A stretch of 64,000 nt of DNA from an uncultured Candidatus Saccharibacteria bacterium (GCA_964622235.1 CAZUNB010000001.1:9360-73359); one strand, 5' to 3'; positions 8,831-64,000 are shown, counted from the stretch's first letter. Notes: generated by a model from the sequence alone, not told the origin. Made by a program: numbers and translations.

Positions 8831-11389
8831 CTACTCACGTGAAAACAGTTTTGCAACTATCTGTGCTAGAGATACACCAGCACTAAGCGTAAGTAGGGCT
8901 GATGATAAAACTATGAATATCTCTTGGTTACTACCTGTTTTTGCAAGCGAGGATGTCGAGTTCGAAAGATTTTTCACTTCACTTAGGTTATTAATACTAA
9001 GACCTACTGGATCAACAATTGTACCATTTGCTAAGTTGTCTTCATCACCGTCGCCACCATCTTGAACAGAGTATTGGAGCAGCAATGCAGGCACTCCACC
9101 GACAGTACTTTCAGTGATGACTGAACCCGGTAAATCTGAATATTTGCTAGTATTAGATTCGAACTTACGTGCAGTAAAACCGTCTTTTGCTAGATCAGTG
9201 AAGAAGTAAGCCTGCATCTCAACCATTTCCCCTGACATAACTCCTTCTACCGTGAAGCTGAGCAGGCCAAAAGGATAATTCTTCCCGATATCTTCAAAAG
9301 CTGCCGCTGCAACTGAAGTTGAAATGATCGTCGTTCCGGCAGGAGAAACCAGTGTGACATACTTATTTGTCTGCGTATTAACAAAGCTAGTAACATTGCT
9401 TTGAGTTGAATCTTTAGCACCATCATCATTACCGTCTCCAGCATTAGGCGCAGCGTCTTCAACTCCGCTCACTATGCCGTCGCCATCAGTGTCGACATTT
9501 GTATACGAGAAAACCTGTATACGATTATTGGCCTGATCAGTAACATAGAATTTTGAGCCGTCATTATTGATAGTGATAGACACCGGAACGTTGAACTCTC
9601 CGTTCCTAGAGCCGAACCGGCCAAATTTGCCGACATAGCTGTAATCGCTCGTATTGAATGCCTGAATACGATTGTTATCCCTTTCAGTAACATAGATTGT
9701 CGAACCATCGGGACTCGTCGCGAGACCACGTGGGTTGCTAAGTTGACCATTGGCGCTACCAATCCCACCAAATTGACCGAGATAGGTATTATCCGCAGCG
9801 TCGAAAACCTGCACACGATTATTGCCAGTATCTGACACAAATATTTTTCCACCTGATATCAGAATTGCTCGCGGAGTACTTAGCTGGCCATCACCAGCAC
9901 CTGCTGAGCCAAATTTGCCAACATAGCTGTTGTCACTAGTGTTGAATATTTGAATGCGGTTGTTGGATAAATCTACAACATAGAATTTCGACCCATCTTC
10001 CGAAAACGTGACACCATAGGGATTGCTGAACTGCCCATTGCCACTACCAGTTACACCCAAGGAACTAACAAAACTATTATCAGAAGTATTAAATATCTGG
10101 ATGCGGTTGTTGGATAAATCGGCTACATATAATTTTGTACCATCTGGCGAGACGGTTAGCGCGTAGGGAGTACTGAATTGTCCAGGAGCACTACCGAGTG
10201 AACCAAACTCACCAACATAGCTGTTGTCACTAGTGTTGAATATCTGAATGCGGTGATTTCCAGAATCTGCAACATATAGTTTAGTATTGTCTTTACTAAG
10301 TGCAGTTTGGTAAGGATTTAAAAACCCTCCAGATTGTTGGCTAGAGCTACCAAATTTAGCCTGGAAGCTGTTGTCACTGGTGTTGAATATTTGGATACGG
10401 TTGTTATAGGTATCCGCGACATATAATTTACTACCGTCAGGACTCACCGCAATACCTTGGGGGTCTTTAAACTGCCCATCACCTGTGCCGTATTCACCAA
10501 TTACAGGTGGAAGCTCTACACCGTCTAAGCCAAACTTTTTCACTTGAGCAAAGCTTCTAGTTGGCCGGACGTTCATCACATGAATTATGTCATTATTATC
10601 GATAACAACATCTGTCGGATATCGCAGCTGATTCAATCCGCCACCCCAATTGCCTATTTGCTTGACATAAGATCCATTGCTATCAAAGACGAGGACTCTT
10701 GCTACCTCTTCTTGAACGTATATATTGTCACTAGAATCAACGGCTACTCCAGTTAGGGAGTGGAAGTCGGGGTCTGGGTTAGAAGCATTTGATACAAACT
10801 GCAAAATATAATTACCTGCGCTGTCAAACTTTTGTATTCTAATATTAGGGTCATCAGCAACAATCACATTACCTTGGCTATCAACGACAATCGCTTTTGG
10901 AAAACAAAAGTTACCGTCTGTTATAGTCTCCTCAGACTTACAGCTGCGTTCGCCAAATTGTCCAATATAAGAATTATTTGTTCCGTTAAAAATCTGAACT
11001 CGGCTGTTTCCAGTATCAGCAACGTAGAGCTTTGAGCCGTCATTATTAAAAGCTAAGTCACTTGGATTAGCAAACTGACCATTTCCACTACCCGAAGTTC
11101 CGAATTTTCCGATATATGAGTTATCCGATGTTTTAAAAATTTGAATTTGGTTGTTGCCTGTGTCCAGTACGTAGAGTTTGGATCCATCTGGCGAAACAGT
11201 AGTCGCCATCGGTTTATCAAATTTCCTATTTTCAGTAACGCCACTCTTTCCGACGACACTATCGAACTCAGGCATAGCCAAAGACGCGTTAGCTGATGAT
11301 GAGTTAATTGACACCACGATAACAACTACTAGAAGTATGACACTGAAAAACGCAATCCTGTAGTTATTTAATAGGGACTTCAGATTCAT
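8831..11389 (-). CDS. Cell-wall-anchored NHL-repeat (beta-propeller) surface protein with LPxTG-type sorting signal (LAKTG)
   Basis: Signal peptide, then at least 12 copies of an NHL-type repeat (GxxGxGxGQFxxPxGvAvxxDGskLYVADtgNNRIQIF). C-terminal LAKTGS motif followed by a hydrophobic stretch and a charged tail (KLFSRE). Confidence 0.75.
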   Translation of the reverse strand: MNLKSLLNNYRIAFFSVILLVVVIVVSINSSSANASLAMPEFDSVVGKSGVTENRKFDKPMATTVSPDGSKLYVLDTGNNQIQIFKTSDNSYIGKFGTSGSGNGQFANPSDLAFNNDGSKLYVADTGNSRVQIFNGTNNSYIGQFGERSCKSEETITDGNFCFPKAIVVDSQGNVIVADDPNIRIQKFDSAGNYILQFVSNASNPDPDFHSLTGVAVDSSDNIYVQEEVARVLVFDSNGSYVKQIGNWGGGLNQLRYPTDVVIDNNDIIHVMNVRPTRSFAQVKKFGLDGVELPPVIGEYGTGDGQFKDPQGIAVSPDGSKLYVADTYNNRIQIFNTSDNSFQAKFGSSSQQSGGFLNPYQTALSKDNTKLYVADSGNHRIQIFNTSDNSYVGEFGSLGSAPGQFSTPYALTVSPDGTKLYVADLSNNRIQIFNTSDNSFVSSLGVTGSGNGQFSNPYGVTFSEDGSKFYVVDLSNNRIQIFNTSDNSYVGKFGSAGAGDGQLSTPRAILISGGKIFVSDTGNNRVQVFDAADNTYLGQFGGIGSANGQLSNPRGLATSPDGSTIYVTERDNNRIQAFNTSDYSYVGKFGRFGSRNGEFNVPVSITINNDGSKFYVTDQANNRIQVFSYTNVDTDGDGIVSGVEDAAPNAGDGNDDGAKDSTQSNVTSFVNTQTNKYVTLVSPAGTTIISTSVAAAAFEDIGKNYPFGLLSFTVEGVMSGEMVEMQAYFFTDLAKDGFTARKFESNTSKYSDLPGSVITESTVGGVPALLLQYSVQDGGDGDEDNLANGTIVDPVGLSINNLSEVKNLSNSTSSLAKTGSNQEIFIVLSSALLTLSAGVSLAQIVAKLFSRE

Positions 11390-35772: not shown

Positions 35773-38700
35773 ATGCAAACAATCGAACAAAATCAACCTG
35801 AGACTATGCAACACCCTGACCACAGTGGTATCACTGCTGAAATCATCGCAGGAATCGGAGCCCTTGCCAGTCTTGATTTAGCAGTCAATAAACCTGGGTG
35901 GATTCGAAACATATCACCGCAGGATGTTATTGCTGGAGACTCTTTATCAGAATCTCTCGGTTTGCCCGGCGAGAGAGAGCCGCATACAGACGACTGGCTA
36001 ACGGACGAGGACCGAACTGCAACTCAGGCAGCAATTAAGCGCATAACTAAGGAACAAAAAGAACACCAGAAAAAGCGGTTAGCCGAAGCCGAGCAAGAAG
36101 AAAACCCGGAAGCAAGAAGGGCACTAGTTCTAGACGCGTGGACACACAACCCAGACACAGCTAAAAGAGTGGTGGGTTTTTTAAACGAAAGAGCAAAGCG
36201 AACACCTTCAAGCCGCCCATACTCAAGTCCAGACAATCCGGTAATGTCTGACGATGAAATTATTGAAGCAAGCGAATCTTCAAAAGGATTTCAAAGAGCG
36301 GTTGAATGGTGTACGACTCTTCGACCTCGTTTAATTCTAGAACGCGGGACGAAAGAAATCCTTGAGAGTATGGTTGATAAAAATGCTCTCACCCAGTCTG
36401 TTGTTAGTATGGCTGATGCCGATCCTGATTCTTTTGTATATCACCTCGAAGATATCCGAGACATAATTGATGACCCAGAGGCATTCGAAGGTGCCGTCCA
36501 AAAGGCGGAGAGAAACCTACCAGAACAAACGCTAGAACGACTTACTCAAATGGTTATTGACGAAAAAGCAGCAGGCAAGCCATCAAGCCAAATGGAGGAT
36601 CTTGCAAGATCAATGCTTGTACGCATGCGTGATAAACCATTAAATGCAGAGACGCTAGCAAACATTATTCAAGCCAAAATATGGACAAAAGAGGAGGTAA
36701 CTAAGCAAGTTTCTGGCGTTGCATCAACAGCACACGGTATTAGCTACTATAACGACTTCGGCTACGACAGACTATCCAAAGTAATTTCACCAGAGATGGC
36801 TGAAACAGCTAAACAGGCAGCCATAACCGCGATTGAAGACAACCCCAAAATGCTTTGCAGAGTGGCAGAAATAGATAGCAACCAGTTTCATAACGATGAA
36901 CTGGTTACTAATGGCGGGGTCATGAGCCCTGAACTACTCAACAAAACTGCAGAAAAACTACTGACCGATCCAACGCAATCATTTGGATTTTTCACTGGAG
37001 AATATCTCTCAGAACTAACCCCCGAAATAGGAAGCAGGGTAATTGATCGAATTATCGAGCTCAGCACCGACTACTATCCGTCAGAAGAAATCATGGAAAA
37101 AGCAAGCGATGAACAGCTCGGTTCAATTCTTGGTAACTTTACCCAGCATAAGCCCGGATTTTTACTTTCAGTGGTGGAAAATAATGAACGAGCGCTGGCG
37201 ATAGTCTGTGCAATGCCGCCGGACAATAAGCTAGAAATAATGGGTAGATTAAGCACGTATAACTTAATTAAATCGTCTGAAACATTGGAAACAATTGGGG
37301 TCCCAGCTGAAATAGTCGCTCAACAAATCAAATACTCATTTGACCGTAGCCCAGACATGAGTAGCCTGGTCTCAATTACAGATAAAGGCTTGCTCCCTCC
37401 TGACGACATTAGTGGGATGCGCGATCGACTAGTCGAAGCAGTAGCATCCGGCGAGACACGACCAGAGCAGTTTGTTGCAAACCGCGACCTCGATATTGAG
37501 GTTTTTAGCGATGAAGAATTAACGGCAGCAATAGCTGCAATAGGTGAAGCTAATCCTGCGGCTGGTTTTGCTTGCGCACTTAAGAACCGGGGATATTATT
37601 CAAAAACTGAGATTGAAAAGATTATCAGTACCGCAATATCTGATCATCTCGATGATGATTTATTGTTAAGTGAAGTCTTTGCGAATGTCTACAGCGGTAA
37701 AGAACCTATAGTCAGCATTGTTGGTGGTTCTCGAGTTGCAGATTTCGTCCAAGGACTATCAAGCAAGCAGCTTGACGGCATAGCCTACCGCCAAAACAAG
37801 ATCGCTGCGACGATAGGGGTAGAGGGAACGAAAGCCTTAGCTCATAAAATTGTACAAGAAAATCCAGCTAGCTTACTACTTGAAGAGTTCCGTGATTTCT
37901 ATGCGTCATTTTATCCTGATTTTGACCCAGATAGTTTTAAGGTAGAAGATTTACCAGAAAACACCGAAGTAAAAGATCTAGGTGGAAAATATCTAGTCGA
38001 TAAATGGAAGAAATTACAAAGTTCAACTTCCGAAATTAGGAGGTCAGAGATAGCAACTGAACTATCCTCATTGTATCAAAAAATTAATGACATAAAACTT
38101 AATGGCAATGCAGAAGGCGCCCAAAAAATAGTTGACTCGCTTAATGGCACCAAGGTAAGCCGGAGAGAAGTAATTGGATCTCTTTGGCTGTTTACTGAGC
38201 TGGGTGAAAATATGCCAGAATCAGTTGAAGCTTACAGTGATTTAGAAGAAATGCTAGTTGTCTCACTTGCAGATAAACTCGGTATGGAGGAGCCCAATAA
38301 AGAGCAGGTCAAACTATTAGTTGAAAGTGGTTTCCGCGTGTATAGCTTTGGTGTTTACGCCAACGAACACATGAACCCAGCACATAAAGAGGTGCTAGGT
38401 GCAATCCTAAAGTCTAGCTTGGATGAGAATTTTACAGAATGGAAATACGGTGGGGATACTGAAGACGATCTTGAGCATCTTAAGTCTAGCGGTCTCGTAC
38501 CCGAGAGTTTAACGTTAGACCAGTACCTAGCTTGGCAACATGACGAAACCACCGAAACGAGCATCGGGCTAGAACTTGGAGCATCAACAGCGCTTGCAGC
38601 CATCTCAGACACCATGACCGGCTACCAACCAGAACTCTTAATGACAGCTGCAGAAACAGACTATCAAGAGATAAAAGGTGAACTGCAAAGTATGGGGAAA

Positions 38701-39576
38701 ACTTTTGGACAAGTCCACGGAAAGCTTAAAAGGCTAAGAGTACTGAGAGATGATGCTCTAGAGGGAAGCAGAGAATACTCAAGAATTTCACTTAGTATAG
38801 ACGAACTTGACGAAGAGATTAAAGACCTCAACCAAGAAAAGTCTCAACTGCAACAATTGTTTGACGTGAAAACTTTACTAGATTTGTCGCTTAATCAGAT
38901 AAATGCAGGGAAAGTACAGGATGAAAAGGGAAGAGACAGAGACATTGGCGACCTACTAAATCGTTTATCAAAAAATACGCCGAAGTCTTACGCATTTATT
39001 ATCGGGTCCGTCGAAGATACCCTGGAGAACTTTAGAAAACAAAATAGCGGTGTAATGAATGTCTCCGTGGTAGACACTGCTGATTTATCAACAACCATCG
39101 AAATTGGGGCCTATCCTGCCGCATCGTGTCAACACTTTGATGGTGGTGTGGTAAATGAAGCCCTACTTGGATACACGGAGCCAACAACAAAACTATTGGT
39201 CGCCAAGAACGACAAAGGCACCCCAGTAGCAAGATCCGTCTTTAGGCTCATGACCAACAGTGAAGGCCAAACGTCTCTTCATCTTGAAAATGTGTATGCG
39301 GCGGAGCTAAGTGATGGAGTAATTTCCGCCATACTTATGGCAGCACATGCAAAAGCACAGGCAATGGGAGTCTCTCTTTTCGTCTCTTCAAAATCACAAG
39401 ATGCGGCCGGGAATATGATTCCAAATATTTTTGCGACATCTCCGATCCCACAAAAATCTACCGATACAAAGCTACGATCTACGGCAAGTATTCGCGCTCC
39501 ATCTATCTATGTAGACTCGAACGGAGGCTCAACGCAAAGACAGTACACATTAAATAAACTAGCTCTAATAGAGTAA
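35773..39576 (+). CDS. Large (1267 aa) soluble hypothetical protein, predominantly alpha-helical, no recognisable catalytic motif
   Basis: Uninterrupted 3.8-kb ORF with no TM helix, signal peptide or P-loop. It is acidic with a coiled-coil stretch around res 1020-1060 (EIKDLNQEKSQLQQLFD). Flanked by AT-rich promoter-like DNA upstream. Confidence 0.5.
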   Translation: MQTIEQNQPETMQHPDHSGITAEIIAGIGALASLDLAVNKPGWIRNISPQDVIAGDSLSESLGLPGEREPHTDDWLTDEDRTATQAAIKRITKEQKEHQKKRLAEAEQEENPEARRALVLDAWTHNPDTAKRVVGFLNERAKRTPSSRPYSSPDNPVMSDDEIIEASESSKGFQRAVEWCTTLRPRLILERGTKEILESMVDKNALTQSVVSMADADPDSFVYHLEDIRDIIDDPEAFEGAVQKAERNLPEQTLERLTQMVIDEKAAGKPSSQMEDLARSMLVRMRDKPLNAETLANIIQAKIWTKEEVTKQVSGVASTAHGISYYNDFGYDRLSKVISPEMAETAKQAAITAIEDNPKMLCRVAEIDSNQFHNDELVTNGGVMSPELLNKTAEKLLTDPTQSFGFFTGEYLSELTPEIGSRVIDRIIELSTDYYPSEEIMEKASDEQLGSILGNFTQHKPGFLLSVVENNERALAIVCAMPPDNKLEIMGRLSTYNLIKSSETLETIGVPAEIVAQQIKYSFDRSPDMSSLVSITDKGLLPPDDISGMRDRLVEAVASGETRPEQFVANRDLDIEVFSDEELTAAIAAIGEANPAAGFACALKNRGYYSKTEIEKIISTAISDHLDDDLLLSEVFANVYSGKEPIVSIVGGSRVADFVQGLSSKQLDGIAYRQNKIAATIGVEGTKALAHKIVQENPASLLLEEFRDFYASFYPDFDPDSFKVEDLPENTEVKDLGGKYLVDKWKKLQSSTSEIRRSEIATELSSLYQKINDIKLNGNAEGAQKIVDSLNGTKVSRREVIGSLWLFTELGENMPESVEAYSDLEEMLVVSLADKLGMEEPNKEQVKLLVESGFRVYSFGVYANEHMNPAHKEVLGAILKSSLDENFTEWKYGGDTEDDLEHLKSSGLVPESLTLDQYLAWQHDETTETSIGLELGASTALAAISDTMTGYQPELLMTAAETDYQEIKGELQSMGKTFGQVHGKLKRLRVLRDDALEGSREYSRISLSIDELDEEIKDLNQEKSQLQQLFDVKTLLDLSLNQINAGKVQDEKGRDRDIGDLLNRLSKNTPKSYAFIIGSVEDTLENFRKQNSGVMNVSVVDTADLSTTIEIGAYPAASCQHFDGGVVNEALLGYTEPTTKLLVAKNDKGTPVARSVFRLMTNSEGQTSLHLENVYAAELSDGVISAILMAAHAKAQAMGVSLFVSSKSQDAAGNMIPNIFATSPIPQKSTDTKLRSTASIRAPSIYVDSNGGSTQRQYTLNKLALIE

Positions 39577-42070: not shown

Positions 42071-42946
42071 TTATTTTGATTCAAGTCTTTTTTTGCTGAA
42101 TGCAATGAACACTATTGATAAAAATGCTAATCCAGCACTAGCTAGGTAGAGATGAGCAATGTTTGAACCAGTGGCTGGTAGCTGGGCGGAGGTTGGAGCG
42201 TTTCCCTCTGGTGCAGAAGAAGTAGTTTGGCTAGCAGATGCTTGACTAGCACAGCCAGCATCATCGTAAGTTAGCTCGGCAGTTTCGATTGTTGTTTGGG
42301 CGGTTGTGGTTTGACCACCAATCCATTGTTGAATGTAAATTCCAATGTCGTCCTGATTGTAGCCCGTAATATCCCAAGTTGCGTCAAGTCGACCTGCGTA
42401 GCCAAGACTGGCTGGGAAAAAATTAACACCATCACCTAAACCACGATCAACAGTAGCAAATGATGATTGGCCAAAGGCCACTGGAAGCCAAGTGTTTCCA
42501 TCCTCGCCAGTGGCAATCGTATAGTTATTAAGTAAAACCAAATCATTTGTGTTGTATAGACCCAGAAAAACACCTCCAACTGCTGCTTCATTTTGAGCTA
42601 TTGTGTTTGTTGTTAGCCGAATATTTTGTATTTGTGCTCCAGTGCAAAGAGAGGAGAGGTCGGCCCTCCAGCTATATCCAGCAGGAGGTTCAGCTGAGCT
42701 ACGGTCATCTAGATTTGTCGCTATATTGTTAGACGGATCTGTGATTACCACGCCAAGTTCAGAGACCAATTGCGAGCTTTCATCTGCAATGTGGATATCG
42801 TCATTGGCGGTAGTCGTATTAAGCTGAAGAGTCTGAGTAGCTGCCGAAACATTGATACCGCTTATACTGAAAATCAATAAAATACTTACAAACACTACAC
42901 CGCTAAGTTGTTTGATTCTTGTTGTTGAATGGTTTTCCACGCCCAT
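42071..42946 (-). CDS. LPxTG (LPATG) cell-wall-anchored surface protein
   Basis: N-terminal signal-anchor, then a Thr/Asn/Gly-rich beta-rich domain. C-terminal LPATGS plus hydrophobic helix plus KKRLESK tail. Confidence 0.6.
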   Translation of the reverse strand: MGVENHSTTRIKQLSGVVFVSILLIFSISGINVSAATQTLQLNTTTANDDIHIADESSQLVSELGVVITDPSNNIATNLDDRSSAEPPAGYSWRADLSSLCTGAQIQNIRLTTNTIAQNEAAVGGVFLGLYNTNDLVLLNNYTIATGEDGNTWLPVAFGQSSFATVDRGLGDGVNFFPASLGYAGRLDATWDITGYNQDDIGIYIQQWIGGQTTTAQTTIETAELTYDDAGCASQASASQTTSSAPEGNAPTSAQLPATGSNIAHLYLASAGLAFLSIVFIAFSKKRLESK

Positions 42947-52296: not shown

Positions 52297-52389
52297 TGGC
52301 GGAGAGAGAGGGATTCGAACCCTCGCGGGGCCGTGAAGCCCCCTACAGCTTTAGCAAAGCCGCCCCTTCAGCCACTTGGGTACCTCTCC
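52297..52389 (-). tRNA. tRNA-Ser (anticodon GCT), type II
   Basis: Reverse complement: GGAGAGG-TA-CCC...GGG-G-CGGCT-TTGCTAA-AGCTG-(21-nt variable arm)-GAGGG-TTCGAAT-CCCTC-TCTCTCC-G-CCA. Followed in minus orientation by the hairpin CCAATGTAAAAaCCCACCaaatGGTGGGcTTTTACATTGG (52259-52299). Confidence 0.8.
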
Positions 52390-52507: not shown

Positions 52508-52584
52508 TGGTGTACCCGGGGGGATTCGAACCTCCGACCTCTTGTACCGCAAACAAACGCTCTATCCAGCTGAGCTACGGGTAC
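52508..52584 (-). tRNA. tRNA-Arg (anticodon GCG), 77 nt
   Basis: Reverse complement: GTACCCG-TA-GCTC-AGCTGGATA-GAGC-G-TTTGT-TTGCGGT-ACAAG-AGGTC-GGAGG-TTCGAAT-CCCCC-CGGGTAC-A-CCA. The T-stem has one A-C mismatch (GGAGG/CCCCC) and GCG is an uncommon bacterial Arg anticodon, so confidence is moderate. Confidence 0.6.
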
Positions 52585-53475: not shown

Positions 53476-53566
53476 GGAGAGGTGACCGAGCGGTTGAAGG
53501 TACCGGTCTTGAAAACCGGCAAGGCGTAACCCGTCTTCGAGGGTTCGAATCCCTCCCTCTCCGCCA
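53476..53566 (+). tRNA. tRNA-Ser (anticodon TGA), type II
   Basis: GGAGAGG-TG-ACC-GAGCGGTTGAA-GGT-A-CCGGT-CTTGAAA-ACCGG-(19-nt variable arm)-GAGGG-TTCGAAT-CCCTC-CCTCTCC-G-CCA. ORF-track entries 53367-53567 and 53395-53580 (-) overlap it and are spurious. Confidence 0.85.
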
Positions 53567-55564: not shown

Positions 55565-56005
55565 TTATGATTGAGGAGCAAGGCTTGATGTCAGGAAGTT
55601 GACAGCACCAAAAGCTATGAAAGAAATGATAAGGCCGATAATCGCATACAAAATTGTATTCTTAGCTCCGGTAACTGCATTTTGGTCGCCGGCACTGATA
55701 ACATAACGGAAACCACCAACAATCAACATGATGACACTAACAGCGCCAACCAAAAAGAGCAAAATATTGACTACCTTGTTGAAAATACCATCCGCCCCGA
55801 AAAGTGTGTTCGCGTCTTGACCGGCTCTAGTGCTACCAATCGTGCATTTGGTTCCATTCACTAGTGGGTTTGTGTCGGTACCGATGCTAAGACATTCATC
55901 AGCTGCGGCAGCAGGAACAACGTATGTCATAAAACCAACAAACCCCATAGTTGTAGCTAGGCTAATCTTGCCAGTGGTTGATTGATAAAGTGTTTGTATA
56001 GTCAT
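55565..56005 (-). CDS. Secreted protein ending in a two-helix pilin-like module (TrbC/VirB2-type topology), paralogue 6 of 6
   Basis: Signal peptide (…VVPAAAADEC), a Cys-containing 55-aa segment, then VVNILLFLVGAVSVIMLIVGGFRYVISAGDQNAVTGAKNTILYAIIGLIISFIAFGAVNFLTS (helix-loop-helix). The loop GDQNAVTGAKN is shared across paralogues. Confidence 0.5.
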   Translation of the reverse strand: MTIQTLYQSTTGKISLATTMGFVGFMTYVVPAAAADECLSIGTDTNPLVNGTKCTIGSTRAGQDANTLFGADGIFNKVVNILLFLVGAVSVIMLIVGGFRYVISAGDQNAVTGAKNTILYAIIGLIISFIAFGAVNFLTSSLAPQS

Positions 56006-56089
56006 TAAATTTTTTCCTGTTTATGCTTATTGTTAAATGTATCAAAAATTCATACTGGGTGCAAGAGATATATAGGCGGGCGCCTGATT

Positions 56090-56497
56090 TTATAGACTGC
56101 TAACTATAAAGCTCACAGCGGCACGACCAAGGAAAGCAATTACTAATCCGATTACTGCATACAAAATTGTATTCTTAGCTCCGGTAACTGCATTTTGATC
56201 ACCAGCACTAGCAACATAGCGAAAACCACCAAGAACAATCATGATAACTGAGACTGCACCGACTAAGAACAGTAAGATATTGATAATACTCTGCATGATA
56301 GTCCCTATGTTGCGGCTGTCTCCTGAAGTACAAGTTCCTCCGGAGTATGTCCCGCCCGTTCCCTTACAGAGCTGCTCCTTAGAGTCGGCAGCACTTACTA
56401 TGCTGTGCTGACCGCTGGGGGTAGTGACTGGAAGAATAACCGATGCTATTAATAGAGAAAATGCGAACATAAATGTAAATAATGATATTTTTTTCAT
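56090..56497 (-). CDS. Secreted protein with C-terminal pilin-like module (TrbC/VirB2-type), paralogue 5
   Basis: Signal peptide, CKGTGGTYSGGTCTSGD Cys/Gly segment, then IINILLFLVGAVSVIMIVLGGFRYVASAGDQNAVTGAKNTILYAVIGLVIAFLGRAAVSFIVSSL. Nearly identical to the module of paralogue 6. Confidence 0.5.
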   Translation of the reverse strand: MKKISLFTFMFAFSLLIASVILPVTTPSGQHSIVSAADSKEQLCKGTGGTYSGGTCTSGDSRNIGTIMQSIINILLFLVGAVSVIMIVLGGFRYVASAGDQNAVTGAKNTILYAVIGLVIAFLGRAAVSFIVSSL

Positions 56498-56509
56498 CTC
56501 TTATCCTTT

Positions 56510-56899
56510 TTATATGTTACTTAATACGAATGATACGATAGCTTGAGCTAGAAGCGCAACCACTAAACCGACTACAGCATACAGAATAGTGTCTTTGCTC
56601 TGTTTGACGGCATTCTGATCACCATTACTAATCACAAAACGAAACCCACCGTATATCATGGCGATGACCGATACACTACCAACAATGAAGGCGAGGGCAC
56701 TAATTACCTTGTCGCGAAGTGGGGTAACGGCAGTTTCAACGGTATCGCTACAGGTTGCATCAGGATCTACCAGCTGCAATTTAGCACACGCATCATCTGT
56801 AGCAGCACTTGCAAACACGGCAGGAGCGGGTGCGACTGCTAGAAGAGCCAACTGCGCCAGCATCACAAACCCTAGCAATAAAAATGTCGGTGTTTTCAT
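56510..56899 (-). CDS. Secreted protein with C-terminal pilin-like module (TrbC/VirB2-type), paralogue 4
   Basis: Signal peptide (…AVFASAATDDAC), then VISALAFIVGSVSVIAMIYGGFRFVISNGDQNAVKQSKDTILYAVVGLVVALLAQAIVSFVLSNI. A 4-nt ATGA overlap with the upstream gene. Confidence 0.5.
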   Translation of the reverse strand: MKTPTFLLLGFVMLAQLALLAVAPAPAVFASAATDDACAKLQLVDPDATCSDTVETAVTPLRDKVISALAFIVGSVSVIAMIYGGFRFVISNGDQNAVKQSKDTILYAVVGLVVALLAQAIVSFVLSNI

Positions 56900-57699
56900 C
56901 CAAAGACTCCCTTCATAAATCCTATAACTACTCGAATAATAAAAGGCACAAGGAAGACAAGCGCAAGACCGATTGAACCATAAATGATAGTGTTTTTAGC
57001 GGCAACTATCTTTTCTGGGTTGCCGGCCGACAACACATAGCGCAGCCCACCCGAGAGAACGATGATAACACCAATGCTGCCAGCCAAAAGATAAACAACC
57101 GGTATAACCTTGCCGAGGAATGTTTTGTCGTCTACATTGGGTAGACTTAACTCATCAGCCGTTCCAAGCTTAACAATACCAGCAGGCGGTGCTTTCTTTG
57201 CAGGGGTTTTCGGGGTAGGAGAGGTGGGAGCCTCCGGAGCAGCACCGCCACCCCCGCCACCAACCGATTTTTTACAAACATCAACCTTAGTCTTGCCTGT
57301 TAGTTTCTCGCATTTTACATATTCTTCCGCAACACACGTAAGTTTTTTACTGTCGGTATCGAACGGTGGATTCTTCGTGCAATCTCGTGGCTTATACTCA
57401 CTGCCGACAGTGAATGGCTTACCAACAGTAAGAGATTTGCAGTCCTCAGTTTTTACCCCGGCACCTCCAGCAGTTGCAAACAGAACATAGCACTTTTTTG
57501 GATCTTGTTTACCTTTGTCTTTGAAGTAGGATTTAAAGACAGCGTTATTACAATCTCCAGCCGTAACTTTATCACCAGATAGATAGCAACCAGGTGATGA
57601 TGCTGCGGATACCTTTACTCCGCTAGCAAAAAGTGAAAGTGTGGCAATCGCCACTACCATCAATAGCAGCATGCTGCTTAGGCGTGAAATATTTTTCAT
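56896..57699 (-). CDS. Pilin-module fusion protein: signal peptide + Cys-rich ectodomain + poly-Gly/Pro linker + C-terminal pilin-like module (start set at MKNISRL)
   Basis: 267 aa. About 10 Cys in the ectodomain, a GGGGGAAPEAPTSPTPKTPAKKAPPAG linker, then VIPVVYLLAGSIGVIIVLSGGLRYVLSAGNPEKIVAAKNTIIYGSIGLALVFLVPFII. The ATG at 57699 forms an ATGA overlap with the stop of the upstream gene. Confidence 0.5.
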   Translation of the reverse strand: MKNISRLSSMLLLMVVAIATLSLFASGVKVSAASSPGCYLSGDKVTAGDCNNAVFKSYFKDKGKQDPKKCYVLFATAGGAGVKTEDCKSLTVGKPFTVGSEYKPRDCTKNPPFDTDSKKLTCVAEEYVKCEKLTGKTKVDVCKKSVGGGGGGAAPEAPTSPTPKTPAKKAPPAGIVKLGTADELSLPNVDDKTFLGKVIPVVYLLAGSIGVIIVLSGGLRYVLSAGNPEKIVAAKNTIIYGSIGLALVFLVPFIIRVVIGFMKGVFG

Positions 57700-58067
57700 T
57701 TGAAGGTCCCGAGAATCGTACCGACGGCAAAAGTGGCGCCAACACAAATCACCAAGCCAATCACCGCATTGACGATGGTGTCCTTGCCGCTCTTGACTCG
57801 CTCTGGGCTTCCGCTACTAATAAGAATTAGAAACGCGCCATAAAATGTAAAGCCAATCGCAACATATATGCCAGCACCGAGCAATGCCTGAACTATATTG
57901 CCGGCTATCCGCCAAATATTGTCAAAGTCTTCGATGATTACGCCGCACGGGTTCGATCCACCAGAGTCCCGCGGCAATCCATTATGCCATGCAGGAAGTA
58001 ACAAGAAGGTATTGTCGCACGCGTCAGCGGCGAACAAAGATAGTTTAGTTAATACGACGTGCATCAT
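57696..58067 (-). CDS. Small protein with C-terminal pilin-like module (divergent paralogue 2)
   Basis: 123 aa: ...IVQALLGAGIYVAIGFTFYGAFLILISSGSPERVKSGKDTIVNAVIGLVICVGATFAVGTIL. Same helix-(S/A)G(D/N/S)P/Q...K(N/D/T)TI-helix logic. ATGA overlaps on both sides. Confidence 0.45.
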   Translation of the reverse strand: MMHVVLTKLSLFAADACDNTFLLLPAWHNGLPRDSGGSNPCGVIIEDFDNIWRIAGNIVQALLGAGIYVAIGFTFYGAFLILISSGSPERVKSGKDTIVNAVIGLVICVGATFAVGTILGTFK

Positions 58068-59095
58068 CCGATTATACCCCCTGGTATTAGGAAGTTCACC
58101 AGCGCAGCGAACAATAAGTAGATTGCCAGTCCGCCGAGAGCAGCTAATATTTTAGTTTTTGCACCAGCAATCGCCTGAGGGTTACCACGAGCTGAAGCGT
58201 ACTGGATTCCCGCTATACCGAGCACCCCAGAGATGATGATGCCAACACCAACTGCAGTGACTTTAACGGCAAGTTTAAGCATTTTAACGATACTATTTCC
58301 CTCAAGCCCCGCGTCTGGGTCGCTACAAGTAAGATCTTTTAACGGCCCAAAAGCCGCTTGAGCACACTTATCTTGTTCAAGCTTGCGCGCACAACTTTGT
58401 TCATCGCCAGCAGCTAAGCTCCCGTCTTTGTCTTTATCACAAACGCTATGTTGTTTAGTTAACGGATGCACAGCCTTCTCGCCTTCATCTTCTGGCCCAG
58501 CAGGGTCATCACCCTCAGGTGTCGTTGCACCTCCGCCGCTGTCTTCACCACCGCCGCCGGGGGTGGGTGAAGTGATCGGATCAGTGGTGCCAGGACCAAC
58601 GCCGGTTGACGCTAAGCAGGCCGAAATTAAAACTTTCGAGACCTGCTTCATGCACGTAACATTAGAAGCCGCGACACAGCCGGCACTTGATCCTCTATCG
58701 CTGGTACATTTTTCAACACCAAAAAGCTGATGGTAGCAGCTCTCGGTTTGAATTGAGCCTTTACTGACATTGGGTATGTTCGTACAGTAAGCAATAAGCT
58801 TCCATGCGCAGGTTTCATATTTTTTTGCATCGTCTTTTTTAGGCTTTTGAGCTAAAAGCCTACTGCGTATCGCGCGACAATCATTTGCGGTCTTTTCACC
58901 AACACCAAAGTTCTTATCAACCTTGCCGCTTGGCCCTGAAGTTGTGGGGGTACTTGTATCACCACTGCCATTGCTACCACCGCCGAAAGAAACTCCCGGA
59001 ACTTGTGCAGAAACTTGTGCAGCTAAAAAGAACATCCAAAATAAAGATATCAAAAAAACCGATACAAAAACTGATTTACGCAATGAGCCCATCAT
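58064..59095 (-). CDS. Pilin-module fusion protein: signal peptide + Cys-rich / Gly-Pro-rich ectodomain + C-terminal pilin-like module (paralogue 1)
   Basis: 343 aa. Signal peptide (…AAQVSAQVPG), about 12 Cys, the TSPTPGGGGEDSGGGATTPEGDDPAGPEDEGE acidic/Gly linker, then VTAVGVGIIISGVLGIAGIQYASARGNPQAIAGAKTKILAALGGLAIYLLFAALVNFLIPGG. Confidence 0.5.
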   Translation of the reverse strand: MMGSLRKSVFVSVFLISLFWMFFLAAQVSAQVPGVSFGGGSNGSGDTSTPTTSGPSGKVDKNFGVGEKTANDCRAIRSRLLAQKPKKDDAKKYETCAWKLIAYCTNIPNVSKGSIQTESCYHQLFGVEKCTSDRGSSAGCVAASNVTCMKQVSKVLISACLASTGVGPGTTDPITSPTPGGGGEDSGGGATTPEGDDPAGPEDEGEKAVHPLTKQHSVCDKDKDGSLAAGDEQSCARKLEQDKCAQAAFGPLKDLTCSDPDAGLEGNSIVKMLKLAVKVTAVGVGIIISGVLGIAGIQYASARGNPQAIAGAKTKILAALGGLAIYLLFAALVNFLIPGGIIG

Positions 59096-59634
59096 CTGTA
59101 TCCTACTTTCTGACCATCTTCATCAGTGAAATACATAGCTTTGATCTTTTTTGGACTCGAAAACTCCATCGTAATCAGCTGATTATCAGCATCCTCGAAT
59201 ACATTAGAGTTCGAACAGAAAATCTGAACTGTTTGTCTGTCCGCTGCCGGCTCACTGCAGTCTTCAAGGTTAAATCTACCGAGGAGCGTAGACAGAAAAT
59301 ATGCTGGCTGATAAAAGGGAATATCTTCACCGATTTCAAATTCAGGATTATAGTTCATGGTCGAGTAGTCGTTAATGCGCGCAGTGTCTAGATTCACAAT
59401 TGCATCGATCATTTCTTTTGATGTGTTTATTTGATCAAGCTCCTGAAGCGCTAAACTATCCTCGATTTTGGCTTGTTTAGCTTCAGCGGCGAGCTCAGCT
59501 TTAGTCGGCTGCTGTAAATACCAAGCTAAAAAACCGATTCCTCCAACCAAAATGATTGCCAATAAGATAAAAGGCCAACGAGGGACCTTCTGCGATGTCA
59601 TCAGTGCTTGTGAGTTATTTTTATTTTTGAACAT
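59092..59634 (-). CDS. Hypothetical bitopic membrane protein (first gene of the coupled pilin-module operon)
   Basis: 180 aa. N-terminal basic segment, one TM helix (WPFILLAIILVGGIGFLAWYL), then an about 130-aa extracytoplasmic domain. VirB8-like topology but smaller, with no motif. Confidence 0.4.
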   Translation of the reverse strand: MFKNKNNSQALMTSQKVPRWPFILLAIILVGGIGFLAWYLQQPTKAELAAEAKQAKIEDSLALQELDQINTSKEMIDAIVNLDTARINDYSTMNYNPEFEIGEDIPFYQPAYFLSTLLGRFNLEDCSEPAADRQTVQIFCSNSNVFEDADNQLITMEFSSPKKIKAMYFTDEDGQKVGYR

Positions 59635-59769: not shown

Positions 59770-60711
59770 ATGACAATCACTCCAACAGACATACCACTAT
59801 CTGGAGAAGGCGGCGAAGAGCAAGTGCCACCTATAGGTGAACAAGGGCAGCAGCCTGACGGACAACCATTTGATGGCATGGGTGATGCGCTGGATGGTGA
59901 TGCTGCCGAGCTACGAACCGATAGTGTGAGTGAGCAGCCGCCAGACGATTCAGCTGAAGAGATTGTCGTTAGCCCAAGCAATAGAAGGATGTCTCGTCGA
60001 GGATTCTTAGGAGCTGGAGCTGCGATCGTTGGTCTGACAGTAATTTTTGGCCCTAAAGTCGTCGACTCCTTTTCCCAGCCATCCGAACCAATCGCCCCAA
60101 CTGATGGATCTGATACAGACAATAGCCCGACTGACACGAGCGACACAGCGAAAGACACCTTACCCCAAATGGAAGAGTGGGACGGCACAAAAGAAGATCT
60201 GTGGGAGGTTGCTCCGGGGGATGCAAATAGGAACTTCTTCCTAGATCCATACGCCCCAAATTCATTCGACGCGGAGCAAGTTACTAAGAGAAACTTTGTT
60301 CGGTCCTTCGACCATATCGTTCTTGGGCTTCTTTACCAAGATAAACTAGGCAAAGACCCTAATGAATACGCAACTTTTTTCGCCAGTTCAGACGTAGCGA
60401 ATCAAGCTCGTGAATTTTTCGGTGACGGTGAAGGCACACATTCGGGTGCATACATCAGGGGCTTTAATGAAAATGTCGAGACGAAGGGTGAAGACCCGAA
60501 CGGTTTAGAAAAGTTAATGCTTGATGTTGTTCCGCCCCCTGGGAAAGAGGGCGCTGTTCAAATTGGGCTATTCGATCCAAAAAATGGAGAGAGATACAAA
60601 CCAGCTTGGGCTACTTTTGGTTATAGCAATAAAGGCCACTATGTCCTAACAGGCATTTTCGACCATGATCCAACAGATGAAGACTTTCTGTCTACGCCAC
60701 CGCTAGAGTAG
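59770..60711 (+). CDS. Hypothetical exported/membrane-anchored protein with internal twin-Arg motif (SRRGFLGAGAAIVGL)
   Basis: 313 aa. Acidic 73-aa N-terminus, then RRMSRRGFLGAGAAIVGLTVIFG (Tat-like S-R-R-x-F-L-G plus hydrophobic core), then an about 220-aa Asp/Thr-rich domain. An alternative start at ATG 59989 (MSRRGFLG, GAAGGA SD) would make the RR motif N-terminal. Confidence 0.45.
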   Translation: MTITPTDIPLSGEGGEEQVPPIGEQGQQPDGQPFDGMGDALDGDAAELRTDSVSEQPPDDSAEEIVVSPSNRRMSRRGFLGAGAAIVGLTVIFGPKVVDSFSQPSEPIAPTDGSDTDNSPTDTSDTAKDTLPQMEEWDGTKEDLWEVAPGDANRNFFLDPYAPNSFDAEQVTKRNFVRSFDHIVLGLLYQDKLGKDPNEYATFFASSDVANQAREFFGDGEGTHSGAYIRGFNENVETKGEDPNGLEKLMLDVVPPPGKEGAVQIGLFDPKNGERYKPAWATFGYSNKGHYVLTGIFDHDPTDEDFLSTPPLE

Positions 60712-60959
60712 AAAGCTCAAAGTTCATCCTTAGCGCTAGATCGGCATAGGCGTCAACGCACACAACTACCCTGAAAAAGAACCATGAAGTGAATCTATGT
60801 TCAGCTGTTTAATCTAGCGCAAGTTACAGTAGCCCTCCAAGCCCATACTTTAATATAGAGCTACAACTATTATGTCCATAGCCCAAACCAACACATTATA
60901 TTAGTTATTGCTTTTTATATTCTGACGATGTTATCATTTGTCCATAAGCATAATGAATT

Positions 60960-62276
60960 ATGTTAGGTGAAATGAAAAAAATAAAAAAGATTATCTTTAC
61001 TGGTCTTGGAACATTTGTCGTATTGTTTTCTACAATCGTAGCTCCTTTGAGTCCATTGATAATAACGATTGATGCCGCGCCATATGATGATGCTATTGAT
61101 ATAACCACTAAAGAATACAAAGCATGGCGATCATGGCTAGTACTTGAAAAGTGCATAAACTTTAGTGGCAACAAGGGTGGCGACAAGGTCAAAAATGCTA
61201 TATTTGAGCACCCGAACTCAGGAACGATTCCGGCCAACTCGTTCGGTTGGCATAACACGAACTCGCTCGGTGGTGGAAATGGCGCGACGGATGGAGTTGG
61301 GAGATTTATCGATAAAAAGGACGGTGAGATTGACTGCAACACTGAGGCAGATCTTGAGATTGCCATGGCGAACCTCGGTTACAAGAAATATGGGGACTTC
61401 ATGAAAGCAATAACTTCTGATCAAAGACTCCCTGATGATATGTTTAAGCTTAAGTACTCTTCCGAAAAAGCTATTGGCGCGGCAGTAGCTAAACACGCTA
61501 AAGAAGAAGGCTTAATTAGGAGTGAAAGCAATCTCTTTACACTACCGGCCGAGTCAGTTTGGGTTTATTGGGCGTCACTCGCAATTGCAAAGGTTGAGAA
61601 CTCTGCATTTGGCAACACCGAAGGAACCTGTAAAGGAAAATTTGGTACTGAAGCGGACTTAAAAAAAGACAAGACCAGTGAGTCAAGTATTGTAAGGCCC
61701 GGCTTAATCGACAAGGACGCCAAAGAGATCGATGGCTGGAGCGATAAAGCTACAGAAAAAGGCTGGGAGTACCTTCTGCTGCCAGAGAAAAAAGCTAATG
61801 CTGCAGCTAATGCAATTGACGGAAGAATGACATCAGGCAAGTCGACATCATGCACCGAGATAGCCAAAGAAGCAACCAAGGATTTTCGGGTTGCAGCCTT
61901 CGCAAACTTGGTTAAAAAAATCAAAATAGAGTGTGAAAAAGATCCAAATGCCGACTGTGAAAGTAGTATCAAAGATTCCTCAGATGCCGCACTTCAAGAA
62001 GATGGGGCTGGTGACGATGACGTAGAGAGCTGCGAAGTTGGTTCGGGGTTATTTGCGAAAGCACTTGGTTTCGTTGTCTGCGCCGTTGTTGATATCACCT
62101 TCAGTATCGTTGACTGGGCAGAGAACAATATCATCATCCCATATCTTATCGTTTCTCCTCTAGAACAAGGCTCAGATTCGCCAGCCTATACAATGTGGGG
62201 CTATATGCGCGATATCTCTAATGTGATGCTGGTACTAGCCTTGCTATACTTAGCCTACTTAAAGGCGATGTCGTAA
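60960..62276 (+). CDS. Hypothetical membrane protein: signal/anchor + Cys-containing Lys-rich ectodomain + 2 C-terminal TM helices
   Basis: 438 aa. N-terminal hydrophobic helix (IIFTGLGTFVVLFSTIVAPL), an about 330-aa ectodomain with about 10 Cys, and C-terminal helices (LFAKALGFVVCAVVDITFSIV and MLVLALLYLAYL). The stop overlaps the next start (TAATG). Confidence 0.45.
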   Translation: MLGEMKKIKKIIFTGLGTFVVLFSTIVAPLSPLIITIDAAPYDDAIDITTKEYKAWRSWLVLEKCINFSGNKGGDKVKNAIFEHPNSGTIPANSFGWHNTNSLGGGNGATDGVGRFIDKKDGEIDCNTEADLEIAMANLGYKKYGDFMKAITSDQRLPDDMFKLKYSSEKAIGAAVAKHAKEEGLIRSESNLFTLPAESVWVYWASLAIAKVENSAFGNTEGTCKGKFGTEADLKKDKTSESSIVRPGLIDKDAKEIDGWSDKATEKGWEYLLLPEKKANAAANAIDGRMTSGKSTSCTEIAKEATKDFRVAAFANLVKKIKIECEKDPNADCESSIKDSSDAALQEDGAGDDDVESCEVGSGLFAKALGFVVCAVVDITFSIVDWAENNIIIPYLIVSPLEQGSDSPAYTMWGYMRDISNVMLVLALLYLAYLKAMS

Positions 62277-64000
62277 TGGGTGGCGGAAACGCAGCATACA
62301 ATCTTAGAAAGATGGCTCCGAGAATCTTGATTGCATTTATCGGGGTGCAATTGTCATTCTTTTTATCTTCACTAATGATCGATATTTTCAATGGGCTTGG
62401 TAGTGGTGTTGCCAACCTTTTTTACCAAATCGCTGACGCCAACAACATTCCGATTGTTGACACCACCGCAATACAAGGCGGTCAGCTCGGTCAAGGAGCG
62501 GCAATTTTGGGTCTGGGAACAGCGGCGGCGGCTGGAATCTTGACTACAGCCGCCGCGGGCGGTGGCATCATACCAGCCATGGTTGGGTTTGGCGTTATGG
62601 CCTTGATTGTTGTTATCGTGGCTGGCTTAACGTTGGTCCTGCGCCAAATCCTTATTATCGGATTAGTCATTGTATCCCCACTAGCATTTGTGGCCTACCT
62701 CATACCAAACCTCGAGCAATACTTCAAAAAATGGTGGTCATCCTACCTAAAACTACTGATGATGTATCCGCTAATCGTTGGGCTTTTTGGTGTTGGTAAG
62801 ATTGCCGGACAAATTGCCAGCATCACAGCCGCAAACGCACAAGGCACACCAGGTAATGGCGGTATTGCTAGCAGTCCTACGATGATTTTAATGGCGTTCT
62901 TAGCCAATGTTATTCCGCTCGGTCTCGTTCCATATACCCTCAAGTTCGGAGGGGGAATTATGGCTGCTGGAGGTAACATCGGCCGACAGCTCGGATCGAA
63001 AACAGGCAAGACTTTGCGCGATCCAAACAGCCGATTCTTAAGAAGCTCAAAAGACAATGCCGCTAAAAAAGGACAGCTCAAAAGAGACAGGCGGGTTCAG
63101 GGCCAACAATCCGAGGACGCCACAAACTATGGGCTTGGTCGAGCGCTAAAGAAGCTGCCAGGTAAGGGCGGAATAGCTAACGCGTATGCGGGTGCGCACA
63201 AAGCCGTAACAGGCAAAGAGGGTTTACTCTCCAATTTCCGAAGCGCCACCGCTAAACAAGCGCGACACGAGCGCCTCGAGGCAGGCAACGATGAGGCAAT
63301 AAAGCGCAGAGACGAAGCTGCAGCAGCAGCATATCGACCAGAGAAAGCCGTTGGAGCTGGTATATTTGCGCAAACTGGCGGCGACCATGATCTTATAAAA
63401 AAGAAGAGAAATGAACTAGAGGCAGCTGTTGAAGCAGGCGAGCAAGATCAAGTAGTTTTGGATGGGTTCAACGAAATGGCGCAGTATGAAGGTAACGATG
63501 AGGCAGTCTTTGCGGCAGCTCGCTTTGCAATGCAACACGACAAAGCTGGATCCAACATGACGGAAAGAGGAGAATTCTTAAATAATGTCATTCAGAATGT
63601 TGATACTTCAACCGAGGGAGGCAAGGCACGAGCAGCGGCCTTTGTCGCTTCGACAGCAGGCATCGGACACCCATACAGTAAAGACATTGGCATGACCTTC
63701 GACGGAGAAGGCCCTGACGCCAAACCTGTTATTAACTTCGGCTCTAAGGCCGGCAAGGGCTATAACGCAGAACAAGGCTTCGCCTATGCAATGTCTAAAC
63801 ACCAAAGCTACAATCTTAGCAACCTCAACGATGGCCAGGTTACAGAACTGCTTGATCATAACGTACGCCTGGCGACAGACAGCTCCTATGCCACTATGGA
63901 GTCACTACGAACTGGCAAGTCAGTTAAAGCAGTTCAAGGGAATGCCGAGAAGAATATTCGGGATATGTACAGTTACAACGCCCAGTCTAGAGCTGGTCTC
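62276..64000 (+). CDS. Polytopic Gly-rich membrane protein with long hydrophilic C-terminal region, TrbL/VirB6-like candidate (partial, runs off the window end)
   Basis: My own translation from ATG 62276 stays open to the window end (at least 574 codons). The ORF track does not list it because there is no stop. N-terminal about 250 aa form 5-6 hydrophobic helices with Gly-rich loops (GGQLGQGAAILGLGTAAAAGILTTAAAGGGIIPAMVGFGVMALIVVIVAGL). The rest is charged and Ala/Lys-rich. Confidence 0.45.
   Translation, partial: MGGGNAAYNLRKMAPRILIAFIGVQLSFFLSSLMIDIFNGLGSGVANLFYQIADANNIPIVDTTAIQGGQLGQGAAILGLGTAAAAGILTTAAAGGGIIPAMVGFGVMALIVVIVAGLTLVLRQILIIGLVIVSPLAFVAYLIPNLEQYFKKWWSSYLKLLMMYPLIVGLFGVGKIAGQIASITAANAQGTPGNGGIASSPTMILMAFLANVIPLGLVPYTLKFGGGIMAAGGNIGRQLGSKTGKTLRDPNSRFLRSSKDNAAKKGQLKRDRRVQGQQSEDATNYGLGRALKKLPGKGGIANAYAGAHKAVTGKEGLLSNFRSATAKQARHERLEAGNDEAIKRRDEAAAAAYRPEKAVGAGIFAQTGGDHDLIKKKRNELEAAVEAGEQDQVVLDGFNEMAQYEGNDEAVFAAARFAMQHDKAGSNMTERGEFLNNVIQNVDTSTEGGKARAAAFVASTAGIGHPYSKDIGMTFDGEGPDAKPVINFGSKAGKGYNAEQGFAYAMSKHQSYNLSNLNDGQVTELLDHNVRLATDSSYATMESLRTGKSVKAVQGNAEKNIRDMYSYNAQSRAGL

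Follow-up and report, generated by a model that had tools for sequence, protein, structure and literature searches.

The closest described relative of the locus reported here is found in Southlakia epibionticum ML1, in which six tandem genes (SEML1_0014-0019) encode PF18895 pilins of 132, 185, 103, 126, 127 and 138 amino acids (aa), all of them essential by transposon sequencing (Tn-seq; PMC10633639). These genes are divergent from TrbL/VirB6-like and twin-arginine translocation (Tat) signal genes, are followed by genes for Hsp20 and a ComF-like protein, and belong to a type IV secretion system (T4SS) of the monoderm mating-pair formation FATA (MPF-FATA) type. VirB2 arrays of 2-11 genes occur in 383 Patescibacteria assemblies (Quinonero-Coronel et al. 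2025, PMC12102498), and in that study the Patescibacterial T4SS yielded no PrgB-like adhesin. In the only Saccharibacterium tested, epibiotic life depends on the T4SS and its pilin array, and no adhesin has been found for the T4SS (PMC11665869, PMC12102498). Judged by gene content and order, a locus within 64,000 nucleotides (nt) of DNA from an uncultured Candidatus Saccharibacteria bacterium (GCA_964622235.1 CAZUNB010000001.1:9360-73359; the whole stretch is called the window, with positions counted from its first letter) is the syntenic counterpart of the S. epibionticum array. The region is interpreted here, at somewhat better than even confidence, as the six-gene VirB2-like pilin array of a Saccharibacterial T4SS, in which the first and third pilins, p343 and p267, carry ectodomains that probably serve in host contact.

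The pilins of S. epibionticum measure 103-185 aa, whereas in the window the first measures 343 aa and has 12 cysteines (Cys) and the third measures 267 aa and has 8 Cys. We know of no earlier description of VirB2-type pilins that carry large N-terminal domains. The main texts of PMC10633639 (Wang et al. 2023) and PMC12102498 do not mention pilin cysteines or disulfides, and term searches of both texts returned no ectodomain-bearing pilins and no position-specific first pilin. Since both the array and its family assignment have been published, the extended Cys-rich members are a refinement and not a new system. A hypervariable, probably disulfide-bonded ectodomain on the first pilin was seen in all 27 arrays surveyed, and such domains appear to be transplantable to another pilin of the array; the pilins that carry them are concrete, position-defined candidates for the host-contact surface of the T4SS.

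Positions 55565-59634 of the minus strand hold seven closely spaced genes, namely p180 and six genes sharing a C-terminal two-helix module (343, 123, 267, 129, 135 and 146 aa). Start and stop codons overlap by 4 nt (ATGA) at the junctions p180/p343, p343/p123, p123/p267 and p267/p129, and by these overlaps the five genes are coupled as an operon; spacers of 12 nt and 84 nt precede p135 and p146, respectively. A scan for promoters and terminators gave nothing above shuffle expectation. The six pilin genes are as follows.

58064-59095, minus strand: p343, first gene of the array, a 'LIPGG'-type VirB2-like pilin of 343 aa with 12 Cys
57696-58067, minus strand: p123, second pilin, without a canonical Sec signal; Cys17 and Cys41, and a third Cys in the membrane helix
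56896-57699, minus strand: p267, third gene of the array, a pilin with an added ectodomain, 267 aa from ATG, 8 Cys
56510-56899, minus strand: p129, fourth pilin, with a signal peptide and a C-x11-C loop
56090-56497, minus strand: p135, fifth pilin, with a signal peptide, a C-x11-C loop, its own 12-nt spacer and an AAGGA ribosome-binding site
55565-56005, minus strand: p146, sixth pilin, with a signal peptide, a C-x15-C loop and an upstream spacer of 84 nt

Selection was assessed by comparing the window with the syntenic orthologous array L006 (a third orthologue is on L007); pN and pS denote the proportions of nonsynonymous and synonymous differences. Structures were predicted with AlphaFold2 (AF2) on shallow alignments (8 sequences for p343, 3 sequences for p267), and their confidence is given as the predicted local distance difference test score (pLDDT). 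The two long pilins are divided as follows (pI, isoelectric point).

59006-59095, minus strand: p343 signal peptide, aa 1-30, read from the sequence as …AAQVSA before Q; AF2 helix at 4-31; the least conserved part, with 37% identity to the orthologue
58898-59005, minus strand: p343 Gly/Ser/Thr/Pro-rich N-terminal stretch, aa 31-66; 64% Gly, Pro, Ser and Thr; pLDDT <50; C5 run at 58946-58950
58601-58897, minus strand: p343 Cys domain 1, aa 67-165, 8 Cys; orphan, predicted helical; pN 0.17, pS 0.89
58472-58600, minus strand: p343 acidic Gly/Pro linker, aa 166-208, pI 4.1; 47% identity to the orthologue; pLDDT ~30
58310-58471, minus strand: p343 4-Cys segment, aa 209-262, with a C-x12-C loop just before helix 1; near-invariant in three orthologues; dN/dS (ratio of nonsynonymous to synonymous substitution rates) 0.08
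58067-58309, minus strand: p343 two-helix pilin module, aa 263-343, ending LIPGGIIG; 91% identity to the orthologue
57604-57699, minus strand: p267 signal peptide, aa 1-32, …VKVSA before A; its ATG overlaps the p123 stop codon (ATGA)
57262-57603, minus strand: p267 Cys domain, aa 33-146, 8 Cys, pI 9.0; pN 0.08, pS 0.84
57178-57261, minus strand: p267 basic Gly/Pro/Lys linker, aa 147-174, pI 9.7, PKTPAKKAPP
56899-57177, minus strand: p267 pilin module, aa 175-267, with the third-position motifs GTADELSLPNV…, NPEKIVAAK and …VIGFMKGVFG (compare the third-position pilins of L009, L008, L031 and L038)

An earlier note on this DNA had described two paralogues in which a large Cys-rich ectodomain is followed by a Gly/Pro-rich linker and then by the pilin-like module. 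Both open reading frames (ORFs) are there and the linkers are as quoted, but the ectodomain sizes need correction to 114 aa (142 aa with the linker) in p267 and about 232 aa in p343. The order of linker and then module describes p267 and not p343, in which the linker is internal and splits the 8-Cys domain from the 54-aa 4-Cys segment (aa 209-262), which abuts the module. The Cys of p267 lie at 38, 50, 70, 87, 107, 122, 130 and 142; a p267 start at TTG 57747, which would raise the number to 10, was rejected, as gene calls on other contigs and the orthologue use the ATG. The two linkers are opposed in charge (pI 9.7 in p267; pI 4.1 with 10 Asp/Glu in p343), and both Cys domains are basic (pI ~9).

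Regarding the module, the gathering score of PF18895 (T4SS_pilin; 26.6 bits) is passed by five of the six array genes, p267 (35.6 bits), p146, p135, p129 and p123. Only p343 falls below this cut-off (15.6 bits, E 0.018); its module was aligned with the other five modules by hhalign profile-profile comparison at 97.4% probability (E 1.2e-11), and P0005 and P0007, distant relatives of the p343 module (34% identity), have precomputed PF18895 matches. The module that the earlier note had called pilin-like and shared with short neighbours is therefore common to all six genes, and the profile matches and the T4SS locus around it support a VirB2-like T4SS pilin module, not one of a type IV pilus. Both p343 and p267 show, by sequence and hydropathy, a leader peptide and two hydrophobic helices with a short polar loop, and AF2 places the hairpin helices at 268-301 and 306-336 in p343 and at 194-224 and 228-266 in p267. 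Leader peptide, helix pair with short polar loop and T4SS locus are shared with the VirB2/TrbC/TraA pilins of Gram-negative T4SSs (PF04956), to which p129 and p123 give weak matches; the similarity is sub-threshold, and the classical pilins differ in being small, without an extra domain, matured by cyclisation or acetylation, and diderm. The minor pilins of type IV pili and type II secretion systems (GspK and the PilX/PilY1 group) are alike in that their pilin paralogues cannot replace one another and one of them has a large extra domain, but they belong to an unrelated superfamily with a class III prepilin signal (cleavage between G and F/M-x-x-x-E) and a single N-terminal helix, whereas p343 and p267 have Sec type I signals (VSA before Q and VSA before A) and a C-terminal hairpin.

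At least 7,951 relatives were recovered with a profile of the module, the best 120 of them all 100-158 aa long; p343 and p267, at 343 and 267 aa, depart from this small single-domain norm (~100-160 aa). In 83 of the best 120 relatives the Cys number exactly two and form a C-x5-22-C loop placed after the signal peptide and ahead of helix 1; in 111 the number is even. The Cys pair is thus a hallmark of the family, and the Cys of the short paralogues are ordinary; those at 55565 and 56090, credited with 3-4 Cys before, have 2 each by sequence. Searched against PDB sequences, the module profile gave nothing significant. The best NCBIfam match of the p343 (58067-58309), p123 (57699-57944) and p267 (56899-57177) modules was NF045849, the Mbov_0395 family of Mycoplasma integrative and conjugative elements, at a sub-cut-off E of 3.8e-5 (p343) to 8.5e-3. 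That family is likewise a pilin-like conjugal transfer protein of a monoderm conjugation system; the scores are 15.8-24.4 against a curated 40 bits, and the model has only 80 positions. This similarity hints that VirB2-like pilins exist in other monoderm MPF-FATA systems too, although such systems are usually said to lack them.

In the comparison of the window with L006, saturation is seen at synonymous sites (pS 0.6-0.9, and 0.84-0.89 in the Cys domains), as against a pN of 0.17 both in p343 domain 1 and in the p343 4-Cys segment, and of 0.08 in the Cys domain of p267; the whole-gene dN/dS of p343 and p267 is 0.06-0.07. Every Cys is invariant in orthologues at 55-80% identity (L006, L007). 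All 12 of p343 are kept in orthologues at 66% and 55% identity, and all 8 of p267 in its orthologue (76% identity by local BLASTP, 80% in a MAFFT alignment). From the low pN against saturated pS, the kept Cys and the signal peptides, both N-terminal regions are judged to be translated and under purifying selection. The earlier note would have given up its reading had translation begun at a downstream Met, and the same comparison (pN 0.08-0.17) argues that it does not. That the long N-terminal regions are gene-calling artefacts, so that only a short pilin is made from such a Met, is highly improbable: a 254-aa call of p267 exists, and p343 is split into ORFs of 59 aa and 302 aa on one same-strain contig, but this explanation has to face the low ectodomain pN, the retention of Cys and signal peptides at 55-80% identity, the ATGA start/stop overlaps and an intact p343 frame on three other same-strain contigs. 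The contig with the split gene (L004; Logan SRR26425196; 3430-3700) is otherwise identical and reads C6 for C5 at 58946-58950, in codons 49-50. Either an assembly error or on/off switching of the first pilin by strand slippage could account for the difference.

Cys make up 3.0-3.5% of p343 and p267 against a window background of about 0.4%, and 7-8% inside the Cys domains. The earlier note's figure of 10-12 Cys in each long pilin is right for p343 (12) but too high for p267, which has 8 from its ATG. Even Cys counts were found in all exported proteins of the window, against mixed parity in the cytoplasmic ones, and in 25 of the 27 first-position ectodomains of the survey below; the two with odd counts lack an N-terminal hydrophobic segment, so that their starts are probably truncated or mis-called. 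The exported parts of p343 and p267 have an even, conserved number of Cys, as looked for in substrates of MdbA/VKOR or Dsb systems. Invariance of the Cys and even parity (25/27 first-position ectodomains, 111/120 short relatives and all exported window proteins) suggest that the ectodomains of these pilins are probably disulfide-bonded, which favours the proposal of the earlier note that a Cys-rich exterior implies disulfides. An MdbA-like oxidoreductase beside VKOR has been reported as enriched in the Candidate Phyla Radiation (CPR; bioRxiv 10.1101/335083).

For a survey of array anatomy, 30 metagenomic loci with 'GIQYA…NPQA' motifs were collected, and these and other loci were scanned with a local hidden Markov model (HMM); the surveyed arrays are mostly unclassified metagenome contigs, and 27 are non-redundant cases. 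A pilin with a C-terminal [LIV][IV]PGG motif stands first in 27/27 arrays. Its ectodomain ranges from 10 to 304 aa with 0-12 Cys and is almost lacking in some arrays (e.g., L034, L029); p343 and the first pilins of L006 and L007 are the three largest, p343 being near the top of the ectodomain range. The best match of the p343 module was the first-position pilin in 15/15 other arrays. The third pilin measures 90-113 aa in 14 of the 15 other arrays and lacks Cys in 10 of the 15, and those inspected (L008, L009, L010, L012, L016, L031, L034, L038) are without a Sec-type signal peptide; a third pilin of 267-269 aa was seen only in the window lineage. The evolutionary status of p343 and p267 is therefore not the same, a point that the earlier note had not made. 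The extended end [LIV][IV]PGG(V/I)(F/I) is near-invariant in first-position pilins (window 58067-58090; L008, L010-L040) and absent at the other five positions, and might be a processing, sorting or docking signal. Second-position pilins (p123; L006, L008, L010, L009) are without a canonical Sec signal; their N-termini have in common the motif …FAADAC(D/K)…F…LP.W(H/F/Y)… and a pair of Cys, and a different route of export or processing may apply to them.

Exhaustive phmmer comparison of the p343 ectodomain with 1.84 billion representatives returned nothing beyond its own cluster and a fragment of an orthologue with a frameshift. Against other first-position ectodomains no resemblance was seen (every z <1); by these searches the p343 ectodomain is an orphan. 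Scans of GTDB genomes gave no matches for p343 and, for p267, one distant Saccharibacteria metagenome-assembled genome, which together with the synteny is the analysis's only basis for assigning the organism. The first-position ectodomain is interpreted as a fast-evolving cassette that occurs throughout the class. The very fast sequence turnover between lineages, together with the low-complexity linkers and the reading of tandem VirB2 paralogues in Bartonella and Anaplasma as antigenic variation (PMC12102498), would suit variable surface coats or spacers, acting as antigenic or phage-evasion decoys or as cross-linkers through intermolecular disulfides, without specific host binding. Such a role is rather unlikely in view of the strong purifying selection and invariant Cys within the lineage, the even Cys counts, which favour intramolecular pairs, and the conservation of the paralogues by position, which is not that of interchangeable copies.

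The p267 ectodomain resembles the first-position ectodomain of another lineage, L024 (Smith-Waterman score 81, z 8.7, reached by 0/1000 shuffles; phmmer 14.8 bits). The stretch common to both reads KCYVLFATAGGAGVKTEDC in p267 and KCYVFYASSVGAGFVEASC in L024. A weaker match was found to the first-position ectodomain of L008 (z 4.0), and a small HMM trained on the 'C…C…KCY[VL]…C' motif in six first-position ectodomains was not significant against p267 (E 0.9-3.6); homology is therefore claimed only for the pairwise L024 match, and weakly for L008. At the junction of domain and linker, p267 and p343 have a 42-aa stretch in common, with 18/42 identities, an aligned C-x7-C-x11-C and a common TSPTP; its score was reached by 1/2000 shuffles with linkers and 8/2000 without. 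Recent gene conversion between p267 and p343 was considered and rejected, as the DNA of this stretch is only ~43% identical, so that any common origin of it is old.

Because the p267 ectodomain resembles a first-position ectodomain of another lineage, domains appear to move between positions. The simplest reading of these alignments is that, in the window lineage, a cassette of the first-position type, made up of signal peptide, Cys domain and linker, was joined to a normally bare third pilin. A more far-reaching and tentative suggestion is that the array is a modular host-recognition organelle, in which disulfide-stabilised cassettes are gained, replaced and moved between fixed scaffold positions and so set the usable hosts. 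It would have, equally tentatively, a first-position-type cassette on the third pilin and a new orphan domain on the first, and the proposed exchange of cassettes would be similar to the shuffling of receptor-binding domains in phage tail fibres.

Under the favoured interpretation of p343 and p267 as pilins with host-contact ectodomains, Sec would export the N-terminal region, an MdbA/VKOR-type system would oxidise the Cys pairs, and the hairpin would anchor the pilin in the membrane with its loop toward the cytoplasm. Should these pilins be drawn into a filament by the T4SS, as VirB2/TraA are, the N-terminus would lie outside and the tethered domains would project from the pilus surface or tip; the long pilins would then most likely be specialised low-copy subunits touching the host bacterium. 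The outward N-terminus is inferred by analogy, and a putative tip or adhesin role of p343 and p267 would fit this topology. The proposed job is like that of the VirB5/TraC tip adhesins, low-copy exposed subunits for target contact, which differ in being separate proteins not fused to a pilin and have no sequence or fold match to p343 or p267. Nor do the long pilins resemble LPXTG/PrgB-like adhesins; their C-termini are LIPGGIIG and GFMKGVFG, and Pfam gave no adhesin matches.

Several points weigh against host contact through a pilus. Outward N-termini are known from the published structures of the F- and T-pilus, and their orientation has been carried over from there. A VirB2-type lattice may be unable to accommodate a domain of 100-230 aa on each subunit, so that sparse or terminal incorporation has to be assumed. 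The AF2 models reach a mean pLDDT of 51.7 for p343 and 38.6 for p267 and are not usable for Cys pairing or fold; in p343, helices at pLDDT 75-84 are confined to about aa 57-110. Foldseek against the PDB gave no match at or below E 5, the poor models making this a weak test of fold. Low pLDDT is here not evidence of disorder, and folding and Cys pairing are inferred from conservation and parity only. Searches of Pfam and NCBIfam and phmmer of the p343 ectodomain returned no adhesin, lectin or VirB5 family match, and the 64-kb window contains no gene for a thiol-disulfide oxidoreductase (Dsb, VKOR or thioredoxin). A pilus has yet to be seen on a Patescibacterial T4SS, and a 2025 review describes as remarkable the possibility that this monoderm T4SS has one (PMC12857230).

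The last of these points bears also on the principal alternative, which is plausible but clearly the less probable: that the long pilins never enter a filament and serve, anchored by the hairpin, as accessory subunits of the T4SS envelope complex. On that account, no more probable in this part, the ectodomains span the wall or nucleate assembly, replacing missing VirB5, VirB7, VirB9 or VirB10 functions, and bind no host. Gram-positive-type T4SSs are normally without pili, and none has been seen for the Patescibacterial T4SS; the six positions are conserved, non-redundant and all essential in S. epibionticum, which suits fixed structural roles; and p343 heads the operon, with its translation coupled to that of the membrane protein p180. 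A first-position ectodomain that varies from 10 to 304 aa with no detectable homology between lineages would, on the other hand, be unusual for a part docking on a conserved machine, and the near-absence of this ectodomain in some arrays (L034, L029) is a further difficulty.

The array is bordered upstream by the following features.

59092-59634, minus strand: p180, a 180-aa membrane-anchored protein with 2 Cys, in ATGA overlap with p343
59770-64000, plus strand: divergent T4SS genes, encoding a 313-aa Tat-signal protein, a 438-aa exported protein (8 Cys) and the start of TrbL_3 (VirB6-like), which runs off the window

Among the loci compared, homologues of p180 are restricted to same-strain loci and L006. 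The same-strain contig L001 continues with genes for PrgI (VirB3-like), a TraC-like protein and VirB4 (AAA_10), and genes for Hsp20 and a ComF-like phosphoribosyltransferase lie on the other side of the array; TrbL_3, PrgI, TraC-like and AAA_10/VirB4 genes accompany the array on L001, L006 and L008. The 313-aa ORF (59770-60711, plus strand) matches the twin-arginine signal TIGR01409 at residues 75-94 (17.5 bits; cut-off 16.7). As this signal is internal and not N-terminal, the true start is probably a Met at about residue 74. The ORF occupies the place of S. epibionticum SEML1_0012, which has a Tat signal and a domain that is NTF2-like and possibly VirB8-like. The 438-aa exported protein (60960-62276, plus strand; 8 Cys) and p180 (2 Cys) have even Cys counts and no family match.

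Just beyond the ComF-like gene lie tRNA-Ser(GCT) (52297-52389), tRNA-Arg(GCG) (52508-52584) and tRNA-Ser(TGA) (53476-53566); a tRNA-Ser likewise directly follows the ComF-like gene in S. epibionticum. Other candidate surface proteins of the window are a 1267-aa ORF at 35773-39576 (plus strand) without a Pfam match, an exported 852-aa NHL-repeat beta-propeller protein at 8831-11389 (minus strand) and a 291-aa protein with an LPXTG wall anchor at 42071-42946 (minus strand).

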